DNA of 64,000 nucleotides from Fimicolochytrium jonesii. Lineage: Eukaryota. Positions 28,381 through 64,000 of the stretch are shown here, piece after piece. The stretch is from positions 124,001 to 188,000 of the forward strand of contig NW_026515672.1 in assembly GCF_025526975.1 (NCBI RefSeq), in the 5' to 3' direction. The stretch's first letter is position 1, and every line of letters begins with the position of its first letter. Position numbers and translations under genes: made by a program. The notes under the pieces were generated by a model. The model was given only the letters and a program-made list of their open reading frames with translations, had not been told where the DNA came from and did not search any database.

Positions 28381-28891
28381 ACACGGCGTACCCGTCTGCC
28401 TTGTGACCTTCACTTCTTCTTTCAATGGCGTATTCCTTATAGACATAGACTTCGGGTAGACACTCTGCCTATGTAAATCCACTCATCTCGAGCGTTCACA
28501 ATCTAGACTACCCTTTTGGAACAACGGCGTATATACAGTACATATAGACACTCCTATATACCATTTTGAACAACGGCGGACTACAGCTGGAGACCTGAAT
28601 CAATGGCCCCGGTGGTTGTCGGGAATGAAAAGAACGGAGCCCGGAGTAGCGCAGGAAGAGCGTGGATTGCACGGATTTCCATGTTGGGAAGACGTGAAGA
28701 GTCGAGAGTCGATGACACACGGCGACGGATTGCATGACACGAGCGTGTTTGGGCCATCGCTTTCTGGCCATATTCACACCTCTCAGGCGTAGATCACTAG
28801 GCTTTGCTTTCCCAGGCACACAAGATACCCCTCTTCACACACTCAGAGCGGCAGCCAGACCACTCTGCATGGGGCCGCACAACCAGTCTCT

Positions 28892-31800
28892 ATGAGCCTC
28901 CGTTCCAAACCCTCCACCTCCTCCCTGCAGTCCAGTAACGAGCTAAGTCTAGAGTCCTTCTACCTCGAGCCCGGCGCTCCAGAAGGCAACAAAGCCGGTG
29001 GCTTCCTCACCAGTCTATGGAGAGCCGCGGTCGGCAGGGCGACGAACGAGGCTGCCGCTCGAACACTTCAGAATGCTTCCACGACGGGGCATAATGCCGT
29101 GGGCACACCGCAACGACGGAAGGTCGAGGAATGGCAGGCGGGGACGAGCGTGGTTCGGTATGAGTCGCCCGGACGGGACGAGCTTCTCGAGAAAGGCAGC
29201 TTTGTAGACTCGGTTGATAACGCCGACAGCGAGCTCAGTGCGTCTGAGACGGCCAGTCAGGCGTCGACTCCGAACATTGACACGACCATGTCGGAGGTGT
29301 TGTCGGATGACGTGGAGAAGAACAAGTCGTCGTTGAAGCTTATTCGGAGGATGCGGAATATCGGGTCGACGGGGATTACGAAGGATTTTTGGATGCGGGA
29401 TGATAAGGTGAAGGAATGCTATGAGTGTAAGCAGGTCTTCACTACGTTCCGCCGGAAACATCACTGCCGCATCTGTGGTCAGATCTTTTGTCACAAATGT
29501 GCTTCCTCCATCGTCCCTGGAGAAAGATTTGGATACCCAGGAGAAATGCGTGTGTGCAACTTTTGCCTGAAGATCATGATCGACTACAAAAACAACGACT
29601 CGATGGGATCCAAGGAGCATTCGCCTCTATCCCAGAGTGCAGTCAGTCGGAAAGCATCTTGGAAGCCGATACAAACGTCACCTACCGCTACGGAACCCAG
29701 GATCGCCATTGCCTCTCCGGGATCGCACAACCCGCCGTCATCCACCAAGCCATGGCCGGGTTCACCATCGCCCGATGGATCGTTGGAAGGCTTCAGGAAG
29801 ATGCTGGGATCCTCGTTGTTCCAGAACAAGCGGGTGACGATCACAGAGGATGCAATGCTGGAGACTCCAGGCTCCTCGTCAGATCCATTCCGCGGGAAGC
29901 TCCCGCAGAAAGAGCGAACCTCTGAGGATCCCAGCTCTGAGAACTTGATTGATCCCGAAGCCATAGTGGAGTACGTGACGGACGATGAGAGCGAGGTGGG
30001 ACTTGCCGATCTGTGGGCCACCAGCCCCTTCTTAAACTTTCCCTCCAACACGGGAATCAGCACCGTATCGGTAGTCGCGACACCGCTGAAAAACATCCGT
30101 TCACTCAACGGCGTGGCGGATTCACCCATCATCGACAGCGATACGTGGGACTATGGGGAGGCCAACCAGCGGAAACGCAGGACACACCGCCGCGTTTCCC
30201 GGAACGACGAGCTCCGCCAGGAGTTTTCAAAGGACAAGGCCAAGCGGCGGAATGTCTCCAGCGGACATCCCCGACCGTCTCGATACTCTGCAAGAGCGAT
30301 CAGCAAGCAGCTGAGCAAATCCACGCTTGTCAGTCAAGCAGGGACGCTGGTGGCGCCGTCGACCGAGGACTTGTCTATGGTGTCGAACGGGTCGCTGTCA
30401 CGTCATCGCCGGACGGACTCGGGCTTGCCTACGGTTGAGCTCAATGCATCGTCTCTCGAACATTTGCGGCGGCTGCTGGGGCAAGTCTTATCTGAGTCGG
30501 ATATCTCTCCCATCGAAGGATGGGAGAGCGTTCTTATGAAGATCATGCTACGGGTATGCGACAGCATCCAACCCGATGTCCGTGGCGGGGACTTTATCGA
30601 TATTCGGCACTACGTGAAGATCAAAAAGATCCCCGGGGGTCTCCCCGCAGATAGCGAGTACGTATGCGGGGTAGTCTGTTCGAAGAACGTCGCGCACAAG
30701 AAGATGATACGGCCCATAGCGAACCCAAAGATCATGCTTCTGACATTCGCGCTCGAATACCAACGCGTGGAGAATCAGTTTCTATCACTGGAACCGCTGT
30801 TGGCGCAGGAACGGGAGCACTTAAAGAATCTCGTTTCCCGCGTCGTCGCCCTTCGCCCCGACGTTGTTCTGGTGGAAAAGACAGTCTCGCGGATAGCACT
30901 GGAATATTTCCTCGAAGCCAACGTCGCCATTGCGTACAACGTCAAAGGCTCCGTCATTGAAGCCCTTGCCCGATGCACGAAGGGGGATATCATCGCTTCC
31001 ATGGACAAGCTTGCGTTAGAACCTAAGCTGGGAACATGCGAGTCATTCAATATCAAGACGTTTATGAACTCGTCGATTCCTGGATATCGTAAGACGTTCC
31101 TGTACTTTGCTGGGTGTCCCAAGGAACTCGGATGCACCATCGTGTTGCGCGGGGGAACCCAGGCCGAGTTGGCAAAGATCAAGCAGATTGCGGATCTGAT
31201 GGCGTTTGTTGTTTACAACCTCAAATTGGAGACGTTTTTGTTTAGGGATCAGTTTGCGATGGAGCCGCCTACCGACTCTGAGCCGGTGGATAAGTTCTTG
31301 TTGGAGGGATTGCCCGACAGCGCGGGAGCTGTCCCGGCAGTCAAGAAGACCGCCGACGCAACGCCGCTGTCGAAGGCGATTCGGCCTTATGAGGAGATTA
31401 TCCTCTCAGCGTCACCTCACGTCAAGTTTCCACTGCCGTACCTATTGATGAGGTTGAAAGAAGAAGAACAACGCATGCTGCTCTCGAACAAGAAGCAGGT
31501 GGCGGACAAAGCCAAGCAAGAGCTCGCAAAGGAAGGCGATGCAGACAACGAAGTCCGGGAATACATCAGGACCATCCTCGATCAGTCCAGCGGATGGCTC
31601 TCCTCCATCGAGACCCGCGCAGGAATCAACAACCTTCTCGAGAACTCAAGCAGCCTGAGCCCGTTCGGTCATCAGTCCATCACGGTACTCTACTCGAACG
31701 TCTGCGCGGCTACCAGCGTACCCTGTCAAGCCCCTGAACAGCACCTCATCGAGTACTATCGCGGGACAGACATGACATTGGGGCAGTACCTCGAGGAACT

Positions 31801-34800
31801 CTGCTGCAATGCAGAATACCTATGCCCCGCTAAACTATGCGATCGGAAAATGCTCATGCACTTCCGATCGTACGCTCACGGCCAAGGACGCGTCAACGTG
31901 GTGATTGAGGAGTTCGCGAGCCCTATGCAGGGGATGGAAGACGTCATCCTCATGTGGAGTTTCTGCAAACTGTGCAACCAAGTCACGCCTGTCGTGCCCA
32001 TGTCCGAAGAGGCGTGGAAGTACTCGTTTGGGAAATACCTGGAGCTGGCGTATTACCATGCGAAACTGGGGTGTCGGGCGGATATGTGTCCTCATGATAT
32101 CTTCCGCGACCATATCCGGTACTTTGCGCTTAAGAATTTGGCGGTGAGGTTTGAATATGAGATGATCGACTTGCTGGAAGTCGTCGTTCCGCCGAAACGG
32201 CTGCGCTTTGTTCCTGAGATCCCGGCGCGATTGCGGCAGCAGGATTATGAACTGCTGAATGAGCAGATTGTGAATTACTACGACTCGTTGTCGGAGCGCA
32301 TCAAGACGTTTACGTTCGATCTTGTGCCGCAAGCAAAGGCGCAGAGTGCGAAAGATGCCATCTCGGATATGGGAAAGAAAGCGAGCTCTGAGAAGAAATA
32401 CATCTTGCAGCTGTTGCAACAAACGCTGATCACCAGTGCGGCCACAGATACCTTGGCATTCAACGGAACGCTACGGGTGCTTCAGGAGAAGGTTGTCCAG
32501 TGGGACCTAGATTTCGCTGCGTTTGTGAGGCGATTCTTGCAAACCGATACCAAAGAGATTCGAAGATCAACGGCCGCGCAGCTGAAACGTATGTTCGTGG
32601 ACGGGACAGGGGTGCAAAGGAGCGGCTTGGCAGGCCTACCTGAAGATACTGGGGCTCTGGCTATCGAGATGGGGCTCAACCCGTCTTCGCTCGTATTGTC
32701 TTTCCCCGAGCTCGGCAAATCACCGTCGCAGTCAACTACTCCATCATTTGGAAGAATGATGCAGACTCGGTTCCCCGATACGTCACCCGGATCACCGCAA
32801 TCCCGAATCAATAGGCGAATGTCGATGAAGTTGATGAAGGATTTGAGGGTCAAGCGCGCACCCCTGGAAATCGTACCAAGTTTGAGACCGTTATCGTCCA
32901 CCCCGGATTATTTCCCCGGTACGAATTATTTCGAGAATGCAGACGGTTCAGCGAACCGGACGAAGCCAGGCAGCCAGGCAGTCCTGGAGAGTCCCTTTGA
33001 CGACGACGTACCCGACATCACGATCGAGTCAATCGGCGGACCATCGATGTGTCGGTATGCGTCCGATGAAGATGAGGACGATCTCGCGATCGGGAACAAC
33101 GTGGACCAGTGGTCGGAGAACGATTCCGACATGCCGCCACTGAACAACGTCCTGGCAGAATCCATAGAAGACGTGCTCACCGCTGACATCCAAACTATCT
33201 CCCTGACGCCAGCAAAGCAGCGCCCGGCCTCCATCTCATCGCACAACACCTCCACGAATCAGAACATCAAGGATGATGAGGAGGATATGCCGTTAGAATG
33301 GAACATCATCTCTGGCGTCGCTGGCGAAACCTCCGAGCATCTCCAGTCCTCCACAGACCAACTCGATCTCAACAAGGAACTTTCGCCCAGCGCCGCAACC
33401 AGTGGTGAACGCACCTCTATCATGAAAACCCTGACGAGCCTCTGGACCGGGAACGCCGCCAACCTCGCCCCATTGCAGTGCCCGTTAGCACCCACCGAGC
33501 ATATCTTCCCCGACTCGAATGTCGTGGTGAGGGAAGAAGAGCCAAGTTCGATCATTGCGTTTACGTTGGATTCGAAGCATTACAAGGAGAAGCTGCAAGG
33601 ATTGGGTAGAGGTGGGGAAAGCGATGGGAGTGCGGGCGTGAACGGGAATGCCGGTGTTGAGGATATGACGGCGAACCCGAGGGTGTCGGTGGAGTTTGAC
33701 GATGCGCAAGGTGCGGCGGTGGGGATGGAGGAGACGTTGCTGCGAGGGACGGGGACGCATATCCGATATCGTAAGTTGAAAAACCGTACGCCGTGCCCGA
33801 CTCCTCTCATCACCTGCTGACGGGTGGGTGAAACAGAATTCTGGGATGGGCCGACGCGTATGAACTGCAAGATCTTCTTCGCGGAGCAATTTGAAGCGTT
33901 GCGGAGGAACTGCGGTGTTGACGACAAGTTCGCGCAGAGCCTTGCGCGTTGCATGCGTTGGGATGCTTTGGGGGGCAAATCTGGATCAACGTTTCTGAAG
34001 ACGAAAGGTGTGTACCATGTTGGTATCCATGAGACGCGTGAGATACCTGACACCGACCCTGCAACCCTTCCGCAGACGATCGCTTGATCATCAAGCAACT
34101 GTCACGACTGGAACTTGATGCCCTGTATAAGTTTGCGCCGGCTTACTTTGAGTATATGTCGCAGGCCATCTTTCATGAGGTTAGCGCATCTGATAGGTTA
34201 CAAGCTCGCAAACTCATCCATTCATCCATCAACTAATACGCATTCAATCGGAACAGCTCCCAACGGTCCTAGCCAAGATTTTCGGCTTCTATCGCATCTC
34301 CTACAAAAATCCAACAACCGGCCGATCCATGCGGTTTGATTGTTTTGTGATGGAGAACTTGTTTTACGAGCGCACTATCTCACGGGTATGTGTCACCGTC
34401 ACTCCGAGTTGATGGGCTTTTCCTCGAACTTAAAGCAGCGATACTGACTCCCCTTCTGTTTTGCAGATATTCGATCTCAAGGGCTCCATGCGTAACCGGC
34501 ACGTCCAATCAACTGGCCGTCAGAACGAAGTGCTTTTGGACGAGAATTTGGTGGAATGTAAGTTTCGCACGCGTCTTACTTCTGTGCTCCCATCACGAAA
34601 CGACTCCTGACCCCTATTTCTTTTCTGCCATCTAGTCATCTACGAATCACCGCTCTTCATCCGTGAACACTCCAAAAAGCTACTGCGTGCATCCGTATGG
34701 AACGACACGCTTTTTCTGTCGAAACTGAACGTGATGGACTACTCGTTACTTGTGGGCATCGATGCGGAGCGGAACGAGCTTGTTGTCGGGATTGTTGGTG

Positions 34801-58022: not shown

Positions 58023-60317
58023 TCACCTCCCGCTCCCAACCCCATTCAAAGCCCCCCTACTCCCCCTCGCGCTCCCCGCCCCCCCACCGCCGATCTCCGG
58101 CAACTTATTATACCGCTGCTTCAACGGGATCCTCCCCCCCGTCACCGCGATCCGCGACGACGTGGACGATGAGGACGATGTGGTGCTTGTAGTGTAAGCG
58201 GAGTCTTTGAGCTTGAGTTTCAGGTCGAGGGCCTTATCCAGCAGCTGGATTTTCCGATCGAGGTGGAGGGTTGATGAGAGGGCGTGGAGGAGAAACGGGG
58301 GAGAGCAGAGGGAATGGAGAGAATAGAGAACGGTACCTGGAGTTTCTGGGCACGTAACGCCTCGTTCTCGTGCTGGAGTTTGGCGCACCGCTCTTCGGCG
58401 TGCCGGAGGGCGTCGTTGGATGCCTATGGGGTGGGGGGGGGGGGGGGGGGGGGAGTGGTGCGTAGATGTTGGTGATGTTGCTCGCCCTCGCAGGAAGGAC
58501 AACCCCCATTGCGAACGGCAGGTCCCTTTGCTACATCATCATTTTTCGTCCATCTATTTGTCCTCTGCCATCCTCTCGCACAGCCCCCCCTCTCACCATC
58601 CCTCCCCGTCCCCAAAACGAATCCGCAAACTTCCCAGAAAAACGTCCCTTACCAACTTCGCTTCCGCCTCCTCCAGCTTGTTCCTCAGATACCCCAACGT
58701 AGTCGTCAGATCCTGCACCTCCTTGAACAGCGCCCGTTTCTCCAGCGTCGCGGTCTCGTAGTCTTGCGTGAGTCGGGCGTTGGCGGCGGTTAGGTGGTCG
58801 ATCTGGGCGGCTTGCTGCGTTTGGAGGGTTAGGCGAGATTGGAGCTGCCGGGGGGAGGGAACATCAGTTTTTATTTTGTCATTTGCGGGCAGAAGCTATG
58901 GGAACTGGTTATGTATGCTTTTATGTATGGGGGAGACTGCACACACCTCTGCGTTTTCCCGATTGAGTGCGTCCAATCTGACTTCCAGCGCCCGTAAGAT
59001 ATCCAATGTGGGGTCGGTCCCGTCCGCTGATGTCGCGCCGCCGCGGGTGTACATCAGCGTATGCGGTTGCGTTCTTTCGTCGGGGTTTGTGGCTGAGAGG
59101 GCGTCCATGGAGGTTGAGGATGTGCTGGTTAGGAGGTCAGCGGAGGGGAGGGATCCGGTAAGATGCGGTGTCTGCTCATGGTGGTCGAAATTAGATGCGA
59201 GGTTGGGATTCTCGGGGCCGGTACTCGATTCTATCTGCTGTGATATCTCAATCGGCGGTGGGTCCAATAGCGCAGAAATGTCTGGGCAGCTCGGGGCGTA
59301 CTCCAAAGCCCGTTGTGATATGAGCTTCGGCGCATCTGCACCTTGTAAGGCCTCTGGAGCTCGGGCGTCTCCTCCATGTTCCAATGCCTCATAAGAGGTG
59401 TCCTCATATCCAGGTACGGGTGCACTCTCGGTCGCTTCTATTCCTGTCACATGAGGAATGGCTTCAACATCCTCAGAAGCCAGCGCCTCGATCCCGTTTG
59501 GGTGCACTGGCTCATCGATCTCCACCGCTTGCGCTCCATCTCCCGCCGCCGGCTGCTCCCCCGCCTCATTCACAGCTGATGGTTCAGCCAGGTCTGAAGA
59601 GCTCTGTGGTGCGTTTTGCGGTGCTTCGGCTTTGTTTGGCTCCAGCCCCTCTTTTGTGGCCTTTTCCTGAGATTCAGAAGGAGCCTCCCCTGCCCTATCC
59701 TCATCCCGGCTTTTCCCATCAACATTTACGTTCTCCGCATTTGCGGTTGCTCCCCCACTCTCCACTGTGGGCCTCTCCGCAGTTTCCGCCGCCGTTGCTT
59801 CCGCCTCTCCAGCATCAGAATAGACCCCGGTACCATCCTCCCCATCGTCATCATTTATCAGATCCGATGATGCCTGGTCCTCATCTCGATCCACGACATC
59901 CAGACCTGCAGACGACTCACTCGATCCTGCTTCCTGTAACGGGACCTCCCCGGAGACAATCGCCTGTGCATCTTCTGTATTCTCATTCGACCCCTCAACC
60001 GGAAATTCATCGTGCCTTGTCGGGAGACCAGCAGGATCTCGTTCCGCACCGGATCGCTGTTCCACCAGAGCGTCTGATTCCCGTGCATCGCCGCTATCCA
60101 GACCACCCGTCTCCCCACCCTCCTGGCTCTGATCATTCAGCACCGGCGGCTGCAAATGTCCTCCAGACCCATCTTCCTCAGCGCGGCCAGGCGTGTGAAG
60201 ACGACTCGAGTCTGCATCCGTCGGGTCGCCGTCCGCGTCTGCGCCTGCTTTGTCGTCGTTCGCGGCGTAGTCGTCGTCAAGCGGTTGCGACGGTGCTGCC
60301 GAATGGGTATCCGTCAT
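58023..60317 (-). CDS. Uncharacterised protein: long acidic disordered N-terminus plus C-terminal coiled coil
   Basis: Long Asp/Glu-rich ORF followed by spliced heptad-rich exons (ILRALEVRLDALNRENAE, LLDKALDLKLKLKD). Confidence 0.6.
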
Positions 60318-60838
60318 GTCTTTCTGTAACAATTCGGTTGCAGTCGGCTGGTGGTTTGGGGCGTGGGGTGGTAAGAGGGGTGTGCCCAAGCGACGGTCGG
60401 TATTTGTAGGTTTTTGGACGTTGCGGCGTGAACGGCCGTTTGAGGGTTTGAACCCTTGCTCCTACCTGTCGATTGTACGTAAGCGGGGTTTGAGTGACAT
60501 CAGCGACGCGTTTCCTGCGCGCGCGGAGGTCCTGCCAGAACCCGATCAAACTAGCAGACGGGCAGGCAGCACCGTACCCGTCTCGCGCTTTCCTTCGGAT
60601 CACAGGGAATGGCTCTCGATAATGGTCCCTGGCAACATGTTCTCATCGGAAGATGTCTCGATAGAAGTTACGCAAAGAGCAACAGGTTTCACCTCCTATA
60701 ATATGGTGATATAAGAAAGCGCTGCATAAAGAAGATCCACTACTCGCCCCTCTAAGAAGATTGCAAAAGTTCCTGCTAGTGCTGTCCAGTCCAAAGTCCC
60801 CCCAAAAACTACGACTACCTTCTGCTAGCCTTGCCCGC

Positions 60839-62848
60839 TCACTTCAGCTGGAAGCCTTGAAACTTCTTCCCACCCCACGGGTCCCCAACCCTATGACTTC
60901 CCCCAAATCCACGCTCCCTCACATTGCCAAACCACTCCCTCAACTCATATCGGTGCATGTAGCCCAGAACGGCGGCGGCGATTGCCGTGAAGATGAAGAT
61001 CACAATCACGGCGACGCCGCCTGAGGAAACTCCGCCGTGGCCGCCGTCGCTCGAGTCGCCAATCTTGGCGGTCGCGCAGTCGGGGAAACCAGTTGGTGAT
61101 GTGAAAGTACGGTCGTAGACGTAGGCGGCGCAGTCGTCGGCTGTCAGATGCACTGCGTTTCCTGGAGAGGGTAGAGACAGTGAGTTGATACATTGACTAT
61201 TCACTGCATTTCAGCAAGTCTGTGAACGTACCCTCCAGCGGAATATGGCGGAAGTATAGATTATCTTCGATAATTTTGTCCGGGGATTTGTATGTGCCTC
61301 CAAGGACCTGGATGAGGTTCCTCAGCACGACCTCCGGGATGGCCGGGGCATTGTAGCGCGTGTCTGGAAAAGAGACGAGAGGAGATCCATTGAATACCAC
61401 GTACGAAACAAAAGCCAGTTTGCGAACATGTAAATTCAGAACTCACAGCTCAGGCCTCCAGGTAGTCTCAAATTATCGGGCTTGAAGATTTGCGCTGTGG
61501 CGGTCCCTCTCCACCAAGGAAAATTCACTCCTTGACTTGCATCAAAGCCATAGAAGCCCATAATAGCTCCCCATTTCAGTTCTTGCTTGCCCGTATCGGT
61601 GTCATCAATGAACGTATTAGCGTTCGGGAATATGCTAAGTGTTGCATCCTTAGTACTACCGGCCGGTACCAACACGCGGGTCGCGCCAGCGTCCGTTATG
61701 AGTTCTGTTTCGTATTTCCCGTCCCCTGAGAAAGATGAAGCTGGCGTCTCGGCTTTGTCCGCAGCCACCCAGAGAACTGTTTTCTGAGTCTTCGCGGCGG
61801 ACTTTGCGTATGAGGCCATGCACTGATATGGCGCCAGAATCTGGTTCTCGAAAATAGATGTTGCCTTGCTTTCCAGATTGAAGAAAAGGGAGTAGAATTT
61901 GATCCACTCGGCGCGAGCCAAGGGGGTCTGTTCAGCCAGCATCGCTTCGGCGACAGACACTACCGGTACGCCGTCGGGGCCGGCGCTTCCAAACACCACA
62001 GAGGTGTTCGATGGGATCCCAGGTTCGCTATAGGGTATCGTCTGGCCCGCATTGACCTGACCGAGAAGACACGGCGACGAGACGTCGGGCACGTCGAATT
62101 GGATGTAAGCAATCTTGGATAGCTGTTCCAAGCGCTGCAAGAACCCCACAGCGTACACCTCCTTCAGGCCCAATGCGCTTTTGTCAATTGGAATTCCAAC
62201 ATCCGTAGGGACCGCTGTGGCCGAATTGCACAAATGCAGTTTATATGCCTTCTGCTTTCCATCGGGAAACGTAACGGTGGCTAATTTGTAGTTTTTGTTG
62301 TATGTGACCTGGAAGTTCTTTGCATGCTCTGTCAAGAGAAATCGGTTTAAGTTCCCGGCTTTGTGTCCATACATCTTCACGCTTCTGCCTTCGTTGGGTG
62401 CGCTCCCTCCTAATACTTCGGCACTGCGTCGTCATGGCCGTGGACGACTACCATATAACTTGGACGCCTCTCTACATGCGACTCGCGCGCGCCTTCCTAC
62501 AATTGACGACATCAAAGCCTTCCTACAATTGACGACCCTTCCCAACCAACCCTGCCACATCTCACAAGCAGCTGCCACATATTGCTCCTACAACTCCCAA
62601 TTCTTCTTGCGTCTCCGCCAGAGCCCAACAGACCCCAGCGTCTCCACCTGTTCCACTAGCAGTGAACGACACTCACTAATTTCAACTCGGTTTGCCGCAT
62701 CGGCGAAGTAATCCTTATTCGCATCAAACTTGTTCGGTGATTCAATTGGCCCACCGGTGCAAATCGGCGTTGTGGTTTGCGCATTCACGAAAGCCGAAAC
62801 GCTCGCAAGTGCCAACAGGCACAGAGACTTGAGATGGAGTCGTAACAT
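60839..62848 (-). CDS. CBA1: CBA1-like cobalamin/periplasmic-binding-fold protein with signal peptide and C-terminal TM anchor
   Basis: Signal peptide MLRLHLKSLCLLALASVSAFVNAQ; DYF, FQVTYNKNYK, SSPCL, EQTPLARAEWIKFYSLFFNLESKA..IF, YQC, PEVVLRNLI, YFRHI; TM GVAVIVIFIFTAIAAAVLGY; introns including 62329-62676. Confidence 0.7.
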
Positions 62849-63645
62849 GGTGACCGTATTGGTTGGCGACGGTTGTCTCCTGCGAGGATTGTCCATGCAC
62901 AGGTGCGGAAACGGAGGAACGGAAAAGACAAGCGCAAGAAGCGCAAAGCTCGCAAAGCGGGAGACGACTCGTCACGTGATTCAACAAGTCGCCTCCTCCC
63001 TCTCTTCCACCCTTCCACCACAGCTTCCACCACGCTCAGCACAACCATCTAACCGTCTGATGCCCACCGGCGCCACGGATGCTATCAGTTGGTGCTCAGA
63101 GCCTTAGGAAGAATACTCACTACAGGGTCGACTGACGCGCAAGTCCGTCTCTGAAGATGCTCTCGGGATTACCTACATGTGCTTTCCAGCTGGAGGCAGT
63201 CACCATGGCGATGCGCTAAGATTCGGTCGGAGCGTTGGCGATGAGGCATCGACGAGGGCGCTGAAGGGTTCAGGCCTGAACAAGAAGTGTGGAAGGAAAC
63301 CGTCCCCCACCCAGAGATATTGAAGGTGGGGACAACGTCTTCCTCCACGAAAACCTCGTACAGTTCTTTCGCTCTCCACACCAGTTGCAAAAGAACAAGT
63401 CATCCTTCAAAAAGGTCCACCTCGTCTCAAAACTCGCTCTCGACTTCTTGAGCGTGGTACGATATAAAGAAACAACAGCTGAATAGACCATGGCAATAGC
63501 TCACCTTTCTGACCTCACAAAGGCACGAAAAAAAGAGCACTTCGTGAATCCAAATGTGAGTGAAAGTCGGTTGCGTTATCTTTGCGTTTTCACACCTTGC
63601 TTGTATTGCTTCTAGCGTGAAACTGATCCGTCTAGGACTCGTCCA

Positions 63646-64000
63646 ATGGAGCAGATGCAAAAGCTCCGAATTAGTCTAGTATCGCTGGATTGGCTGAGAC
63701 CGAAGGATCCGCGGATTGCGCTTGGACATGCGTCGATCAAAGCTAAACTGACACAAAGCCAATTCGCCGAGCGCTTGGACGTCAAGGATCACTCCTTCAA
63801 CGTCAATCCAAGCCAATCGCTTCCGGCAGACTTGCTGAGCACGGCTGAAGAAGCAGCTGATGAGATCTTGGCGAGCAAGCCGGATCTTGTGGCATTTGGT
63901 GGATATGTTTGGAACGAATCTTATGTACAAAATATTCACAAGATCTTGGCGACTTCAAACCCGCGAAACACCTTCAACATACTAATGGGTCCGCAGACTT
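63646..64000 (+). CDS. B12-binding-domain protein, probably the N-terminus of a cobalamin-dependent radical SAM enzyme; runs off the window
   Basis: Open frame from ATG 63646: LRISLVSLDWLRPKDPRIALGHASIKA...EILASKPDLVAFGGYVWNESYVQNI...ILMGPQ. A possible in-frame upstream exon at 63490-63555 with intron 63556-63615. Absent from the ORF track because no stop codon falls inside the window. Confidence 0.7.
   Translation, partial: MEQMQKLRISLVSLDWLRPKDPRIALGHASIKAKLTQSQFAERLDVKDHSFNVNPSQSLPADLLSTAEEAADEILASKPDLVAFGGYVWNESYVQNIHKILATSNPRNTFNILMGPQT

Follow-up and report, generated by a model that had tools for sequence, protein, structure and literature searches.

We have analysed a 64-kb stretch of DNA from the chytrid Fimicolochytrium jonesii (the window; all positions are numbered within it), which carries at its end two genes lying head-to-head. 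Gene A, on the minus strand, encodes a CBA1-like protein, and gene B, on the plus strand, encodes a predicted cobalamin (B12)-type radical S-adenosylmethionine (SAM) enzyme. Their start codons are separated by 797 bp (62849-63645), in line with the 0.6-0.8 kb given in the original prediction, which had proposed that the two genes form a co-regulated B12-acquisition and B12-utilisation pair. All the motifs it quoted for the two genes were found.

Gene models at the locus

Gene A (60839-62848) comprises four exons coding for 502 aa, and the spliced exons matched the public protein P0001 letter for letter. An open reading frame (ORF) on the minus strand (61436-62380) was 100% identical to P0001, which is named "uncharacterized protein EV422DRAFT_611469." All gene A introns are bounded by GT...AG; the acceptor of intron 1 is at 62329 in the public model, and homologues agree with it. 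The sequence PLARAEWIKFYSLFFNLE is encoded in the large exon, exon 2. Gene B starts with the ATG at 63646 and is open through 63999, continuing past the window edge. Its 118 codons inside the window are identical to residues 1-118 of the public protein P0010, the complete gene B product of 491 aa, and LGHAS, PDLVAFGGYVWN and GPQ were all found in this initial part. P0001 and P0010, both of them 100% matches, fall on one 1.22-Mb contig. The features are collected in Table 1.

For gene A, we have used an alignment of nine sequences and another of 87 rows, the latter combining eight search matches with 79 ORFs from 80 metagenome CBA1-like loci, one of which gave no usable ORF. Genes A and B are real genes and no chance ORFs: the core of the gene A motif, E-W-x-K-F, did not vary in any of the 87 aligned family sequences, and the alignment of gene B to 19 relatives has 68 invariant columns. 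An Rfam scan of 60000-64000 produced no match at E ≤ 1.

Table 1. Features of the head-to-head gene pair (window positions)
Feature	Position	Strand	Remarks
Gene A exon 1, with the start codon and a putative signal peptide	62677..62848	-	P0001 residues 1-57; GTGAGT donor at 62676
Gene A exon 2: bulk of the periplasmic-binding-type domain and E198-W-I-K-F...F206-F-N-L-E210 helix motif	61447..62328	-	P0001 residues 58-352; motif invariant in both alignments
Gene A exon 3: part of the C-lobe; the family W-F-E motif is T-R-Y here	61232..61363	-	Alignments
Gene A exon 4, with the stalk, one predicted transmembrane helix, a tail of ~40 residues and the stop	60839..61161	-	Helix modelled at 442-478
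Inter-start region, possible shared promoter (inferred)	62849..63645	.	797 bp
Gene B codons 1-118, covering the first part of a predicted Rossmann-type cobalamin-binding domain with W89 in GYVWNE	63646..64000	+	Identical to P0010 1-118

Some details of the gene B model were noted in addition. By eye, a possible 5' exon begins with an ATG at 63490 and runs for 22 codons to a GTGAGT donor (63556), and a TAG acceptor at 63615 would join 10 in-frame codons (63616-63645) to the annotated ATG. N-terminal extensions resembling organelle presequences occur in the gene B relatives of Acaulospora, Diversispora, Allomyces, Attheya and Gigaspora. At the other end, residues ~450-491 of P0010 align with no relative and have a predicted local distance difference test score (pLDDT) below 50; the annotated 3' end may be mis-called or may read through an intron.

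The CBA1-like protein and its proposed B12 pocket

By its sequence, gene A is a member of the CBA1/class III periplasmic-binding family. A word-indexed protein search returned nine proteins at E ≤ 0.001 among 1260 candidates, namely gene A itself, three Gigasporaceae proteins (31-32% identical), four metagenome proteins of diatom type and one bacterial lipoprotein with PF01497. The best non-self match was only 31% identical. Neither Pfam nor NCBIfam gave a match to gene A itself, and PF01497 was detected in its Gigaspora relative (E 3.7e-4). In the ESM Atlas, P0001 adjoins eukaryotic clusters from Zoopagomycota and Mucoromycota named "periplasmic binding protein" and, by structure, streptophyte and chlorophyte clusters together with bacterial PF01497 ABC substrate-binding proteins (TM-score 0.60-0.74).

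Residues 1-24 of P0001 resemble a signal peptide and a hydrophobic stretch lies near the C-terminus. The AlphaFold model obtained from the nine-sequence alignment placed helices at 2-22 and 442-478 (best block pLDDT 82), with an overall pLDDT of 44.2 that was too poor for a fold search. CBA1 (Cre02.g081050 in Chlamydomonas, Phatr3_J48322 in Phaeodactylum) is required for B12 uptake in both organisms according to Sayer et al. (2023, PMC10828217), where the Chlamydomonas protein (CrCBA1) is described with a signal peptide and a C-terminal transmembrane helix. Gene A has the same topology of signal peptide, binding-protein domain and one C-terminal transmembrane helix, and it resembles CBA1 in predicted fold. 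It would be a type I membrane protein, with its two-lobed binding domain facing the cell exterior or the endomembrane lumen. The same text lists CBA1-like sequences in five METH-containing fungi, Spizellomyces punctatus among them. Since this case is in print, a CBA1-like gene in a chytrid of the same order is of a known kind. Compared with BtuF and the other class III proteins (PF01497), gene A would belong to the same fold family but is eukaryotic and membrane-anchored, with no adjoining ABC permease and no Pfam match of its own; the bacterial members that carry its helix motif follow cobalamin riboswitches.

The 16 conserved CBA1 residues reported in PMC10828217 were placed on gene A by motif spacing, and not by alignment to CrCBA1 itself. 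Eleven of them are retained: all seven of the helix-end cluster (K78, P118, L136, F214, F215, N216 and E218) plus E206, V253, W255 and G289. The gene A equivalents of the cluster and of E206 are K72, P104, L124, E198, F206, F207, N208 and E210. The other five are replaced (P251 by K, W394 by T, F395 by R, E396 by Y and D408 by N). The E...FFN.E helix motif, the topology and the 11 retained residues bore out the prediction that gene A is CBA1-like, at about 25-31% identity to any relative found; the fungal members of the family are known from sequence.

The replaced residues include most of the proposed ligand pocket. Superposition of the CrCBA1 model on BtuF put W255, W394, F395 and E396 around B12 (PMC10828217), and gene A retains one of these four, the W255 equivalent W244, with T353, R354 and Y355 standing where W, F and E stand in CBA1. 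In the 87-row alignment, 51 columns were conserved at 70% or more and gene A deviated at 15 of them. Two deviations fell among the 27 columns preceding P251; the other 13 were in the C-lobe, among the 24 columns starting at P251. By hand count, the Gigaspora protein deviated from this mostly bacterial consensus at 17 of the 51 columns and a diatom-type protein at 20. Because eukaryotic relatives also deviate often from such a consensus, the alignments indicate that which residues gene A has lost tells more than how many. A corrinoid is predicted as its ligand only with reserve, since of the four residues proposed to contact B12, three differ.

Riboswitches were also sought in the 18 longest of the 80 metagenomic loci with a gene A relative. 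A cobalamin riboswitch (RF00174, 57.7-97.3 bits) was present in 10 loci and absent from the other eight. Eight of the 10 lay upstream on the same strand (loci L084, L088, L098, L103, L108, L114, L115 and L116) and two on the opposite strand (L123 and L127). This suggests, as independent support, that the wider CBA1-like family handles corrinoids.

The radical SAM protein, its relatives and its possible substrate

PF04055 (Radical_SAM) matched P0010 at E 2.3e-10, with 41.3 bits against a cut-off of 29.5. The CxxxCxxC motif, which the original prediction had suggested looking for past position 64000, is present at C206, C210 and C213, just beyond the window. PF02310 (B12-binding domain) gave E 0.031 on the in-window piece and 8e-6 on the whole protein (26.1 bits, under the Pfam cut-off of 32.1). 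In NCBIfam, the highest scores, 50-55 bits, came from KedN5-type and other models for B12 radical SAM proteins, whose cut-offs lie at 251-750. The AlphaFold model (20-sequence alignment) had a pLDDT of 83.7 and a predicted TM-score (pTM) of 0.81. When this model was searched with Foldseek, CysS (9n1d; E 3.6e-24, TM-score 0.69) and TokK (7kdy; E 9.4e-24) ranked at the top, followed by TsrM, MgmA, AprD4 and OxsB. The family profile of gene B likewise matched TokK (E 3.4e-33) and CysS (E 8.1e-32).

With TokK, ThnK and CysS, gene B shares a putative cobalamin Rossmann domain and the radical SAM barrel (TM-score 0.68-0.70), its fold agreeing with TokK and CysS across both domains, as well as the YVWN context of the lower-axial Trp. 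In pairwise alignment, TokK W76 fell on W89 of GYVWNE; W76 sits under the cobalt and, of the other known methylases, ThnK and CysS alone have it, as stated in bioRxiv 10.1101/2021.07.10.451909. Gene B differs from the three enzymes in being about 19-20% identical, in having the His of an invariant CQH motif at the position of the active-site W215 of TokK, and in lacking the C-terminal domain of ~200 residues found in TokK and CysS (491 aa vs. 645-681 aa). Gene B is predicted to be a class B type radical SAM enzyme in a subfamily of its own, and to use cobalamin, which agrees with the B12-binding radical SAM gene initially proposed. If it works as CysS and TokK do, gene B would use a [4Fe-4S] cluster, ligated by C206, C210 and C213, to cleave SAM; base-off cobalamin above W89 would carry the methyl group, and an unactivated carbon would be methylated.

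Of the 7997 candidates scored in a search with P0010, 971 proteins reached E ≤ 1e-10. Among the matches listed (the best 120 of 971, with 40-51% identity), the fungi named were Nowakowskiella, six Glomeromycota and Allomyces, and the other named entries were two dictyostelids, the diatom Attheya, a Panagrolaimus record and one Rickettsiaceae metagenome-assembled genome (MAG). In prokaryote genomes, 147 stretches encode a gene B relative; the 80 loci kept come from Legionellales, Coxiellaceae, Rickettsiaceae, many Myxococcota, Planctomycetota, Pseudomonas and marine archaea. We have then built a quick maximum-likelihood tree of 109 rows. These were 14 named and 22 unnamed proteins, the latter picked from the highest-ranking matches, together with 73 of the 80 loci, the other seven having no full ORF. 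F. jonesii, Nowakowskiella, Allomyces, five Glomeromycota and ten unnamed metagenome proteins formed an 18-row clade (Shimodaira-Hasegawa-like approximate likelihood ratio test, SH-aLRT, 99) with no prokaryote-labelled row inside it. In a second quick tree, of a 54-row subset and rooted on Myxococcota-type rows, this fungal clade had an SH-aLRT of 98. The clade joined Legionellales-type bacteria and other eukaryotes in a 51-row set (SH-aLRT 100), where the eukaryotes outside the clade were interleaved with gammaproteobacterial MAGs whose contigs bear ordinary bacterial genes. From these trees, gene B belongs to an apparently fungal clade (chytrids, Allomyces and Glomeromycota), which looks vertically inherited. 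Close pairs in the trees were Polysphondylium with locus L011, Tieghemostelium and Gigaspora margarita with L012, and Panagrolaimus with L021, with Attheya near L013; such eukaryote-MAG pairs could reflect transfer between host and intracellular bacterium or assembly contamination.

The PADLOC profile PDC-M51A matched P0010 at E 1.3e-107, with residues 6-450 aligned to positions 4-416 of the 420 in the profile, and bacterial members of the gene B family at E 1e-134. On this end-to-end match, gene B is classed as the fungal branch of PDC-M51A, a family of cobalamin-type radical SAM proteins. PDC systems are phage-defence candidates predicted by "guilt by embedding" in known defence systems, and one example in a figure legend joins a radical SAM protein to a deoxynucleoside kinase (bioRxiv 10.1101/2024.01.29.577857). 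The term PDC-M51 did not occur in the literature searched, paywalled papers lying outside the search. PDC-M51 combines the radical SAM protein M51A with the kinase M51B; gene B differs from it in being eukaryotic, in forming its own fungal clade, and in having a CBA1-like neighbour instead of an M51B kinase in the window.

A dTMP-kinase-like gene with the same orientation trails the radical SAM gene by -195 to +201 nt in 22 of the 80 bacterial loci (L023, L025, L029, L030, L033, L035, L037-L039, L048, L050, L051, L054, L062-L066, L068, L073, L079 and L080). Its product of ~200 aa matched Thymidylate_kin (E 4.5e-14), PDC-M51B (E 5.5e-56) and PADLOC VakA (E 6.6e-16 to 1.1e-20), and scored 56.7 bits as a dTMP kinase, below the cut-off of 83.25. 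All 22 loci fall in the half of the tree formed by Myxococcota, Pseudomonas and Planctomycetota. The two genes form an operon, and a Ser/Thr protein kinase gene was observed within 4 kb in 12 loci and an extracytoplasmic function (ECF) sigma factor gene in six. The Legionellales-type loci had no recurring partner among 24 neighbouring genes from 12 loci. No M51B kinase homologue was found at E ≤ 1 in the window, i.e., across 63.6 kb upstream of gene B, and none of the eight longer gene B homologues had a fused kinase domain.

Because a dTMP-kinase-like gene follows in the bacterial relatives, a nucleotide would be the best guess for the gene B substrate. This guess is a remote one for the fungal enzyme, since the kinase is confined to the Myxococcota-type half of the tree. 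A comparable logic is found in viperin (RSAD2) with CMPK2 or viperin-associated kinases, and by analogy only the bacterial relatives of gene B would share this combination of a radical SAM enzyme and a thymidylate-kinase-family kinase. Viperin is no cobalamin-type enzyme and is homologous to the gene B family no further than the radical SAM core.

Adjacency of the two genes and its meaning

The pairing was not seen elsewhere. No CBA1-like gene was found within 7 kb of the radical SAM gene in any of the 80 bacterial loci (tblastn, five queries, E ≤ 0.01), and no radical SAM relative was found near the CBA1-like gene in any of the 80 metagenomic loci, many of which are on contigs of only 1-4 kb. 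In G. margarita, the binding protein and the radical SAM protein are encoded on separate contigs of 640 kb and 739 kb. Conserved adjacency was thus not supported, and neither was the suggestion in the original prediction that the pair may mark the edge of a larger B12 cluster: no B12-related gene was present among the 22 longest ORFs scanned upstream in the window, which include an SNF1-type kinase, an ABC ATPase, a Fab1-like protein, and bZIP, KH, Sel1 and GDSL proteins. Two open frames in this region were noted separately. One of 1675 codons (28793-33817, plus strand) has FYVE and Cpn60_TCP1 domains in a Fab1/PIKfyve-type lipid kinase pattern, and one of 521 codons (58899-60461, minus strand), directly downstream of gene A, is very acidic, of low complexity and without a Pfam family.

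With confidence standing about midway, we read the adjacency of these two B12-linked genes as most likely a lineage-specific arrangement of debatable meaning, with no conserved module behind it. Several points weigh against this reading or against the assignments on which it draws. The result from the 80 metagenomic loci is weak given their short contigs, the radical SAM protein of G. margarita sits in another, non-fungal branch of the tree, and lineage specificity was judged from bacterial and metagenomic loci and G. margarita, the closest relatives being other Spizellomycetales. As a rough estimate, given about a dozen B12-linked genes, two of them would become neighbours by chance within one genome in ~0.2-2% of cases; chance adjacency being this improbable, a functional link between genes A and B should not be dismissed. 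As for gene B, its predicted cobalamin use leans on similarity of fold and motif, PF02310 remaining below its cut-off, and the kinase neighbour of its Myxococcota-type relatives has no counterpart in the Legionellales-type ones, which lie closest to the fungal clade.

A true co-regulated B12 module, in which a B12-responsive bidirectional promoter would make a corrinoid receptor together with the enzyme consuming the cofactor, is a tentative alternative that we place on the unlikely side. The 797-bp common upstream region makes co-expression possible, both gene families are B12-linked, the neighbourhood would seldom arise by chance in a single genome, and B12 deprivation strongly induces CrCBA1 (PMC10828217). 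Yet the pair is absent from every other locus set compared, gene A is without W394, F395 and E396 of the proposed pocket, the 22 long ORFs held no further B12 gene, and a few chance adjacencies would be expected across many fungal genomes. Of the proposed acquisition and utilisation pair, the family identities of both genes have stood, whereas the B12-binding role of gene A is put in doubt by the loss of three of the four residues proposed to surround B12. Gene A may indeed bind no B12 at all, being a diverged paralogue for another chelate or tetrapyrrole, or a non-binding receptor; we place this, too, on the unlikely side. It would fit the single pocket residue retained, the concentration of changes in the C-lobe and the low identity of the top non-self match, as well as the streptophyte CBA1-like proteins that occur in plants without B12 enzymes (PMC10828217). 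Against it speak the intact signature helix of the family and the cobalamin riboswitches preceding bacterial relatives, and the pocket residues themselves derive from a model superposed on BtuF and from no experiment in that source.

Membership of gene B in PDC-M51A opens a reading where B12 is merely its cofactor. Gene B would then be a eukaryotic, viperin-analogous immune-type enzyme making a modified, possibly C-methylated, antiviral nucleotide, with gene A as an unrelated neighbour, which we regard as unlikely. The full-length PDC-M51A match, the operon shared by bacterial relatives with a kinase that also matches VakA, the prediction of PDC systems from their embedding in known defence systems, and the patchy spread outside the fungal clade, with eukaryotes interleaved with amoeba-associated bacteria, are consistent with it. 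However, the defence role of PDC-M51 is itself a predicted one, neither the 63.6 kb upstream nor the eight longer homologues supplied a kinase, and a vertical-looking fungal clade would suit housekeeping equally. That gene B entered the assembly as bacterial contamination, or was transferred recently and is now dead, is hardly credible. Its nearest prokaryotic relatives are indeed Legionellales, Coxiellaceae and Rickettsiaceae, but gene B shares the 1.22-Mb contig with intron-bearing fungal genes, keeps an open frame with the 68 family-invariant residues, and clusters with other fungi, away from bacteria.

The families of gene A and gene B are both already catalogued, and CBA1-like proteins of fungi are in print (PMC10828217). 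In the literature searched, again with paywalled papers outside the search, we have found no description of a fungal or eukaryotic B12-type radical SAM enzyme; absent from it are the fungal cobalamin-type radical SAM clade, its PDC-M51A membership, and its head-to-head pairing with a pocket-altered CBA1-like gene. As far as the accessible parts of the sources go, surveys of eukaryotic B12 use count just MetH, methylmalonyl-CoA mutase and class II ribonucleotide reductase (PMC2667541), and the fungal clade is missing from PMC2667541, PMC8085122 and PMC13443276; "radical SAM" occurs zero times in the fungal survey PMC8085122. It is decidedly improbable, in our view, that early-diverging fungi, some amoebae and diatoms hold a fourth B12-dependent family missed so far. 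Its viperin-like, cobalamin-dependent radical SAM enzyme, which the bacterial candidate PDC-M51 would have in common with them, would produce a C-methylated nucleotide and, in F. jonesii, be tied by a bidirectional promoter to a dedicated corrinoid receptor.

If the pairing proves coincidental, the finding shrinks to two already-catalogued gene families. For the fungi concerned, a clade of such cobalamin-type enzymes, conserved among them, would be a further reason to acquire B12, and its membership in a defence-candidate family would tie fungal B12 use to nucleotide chemistry or immunity.

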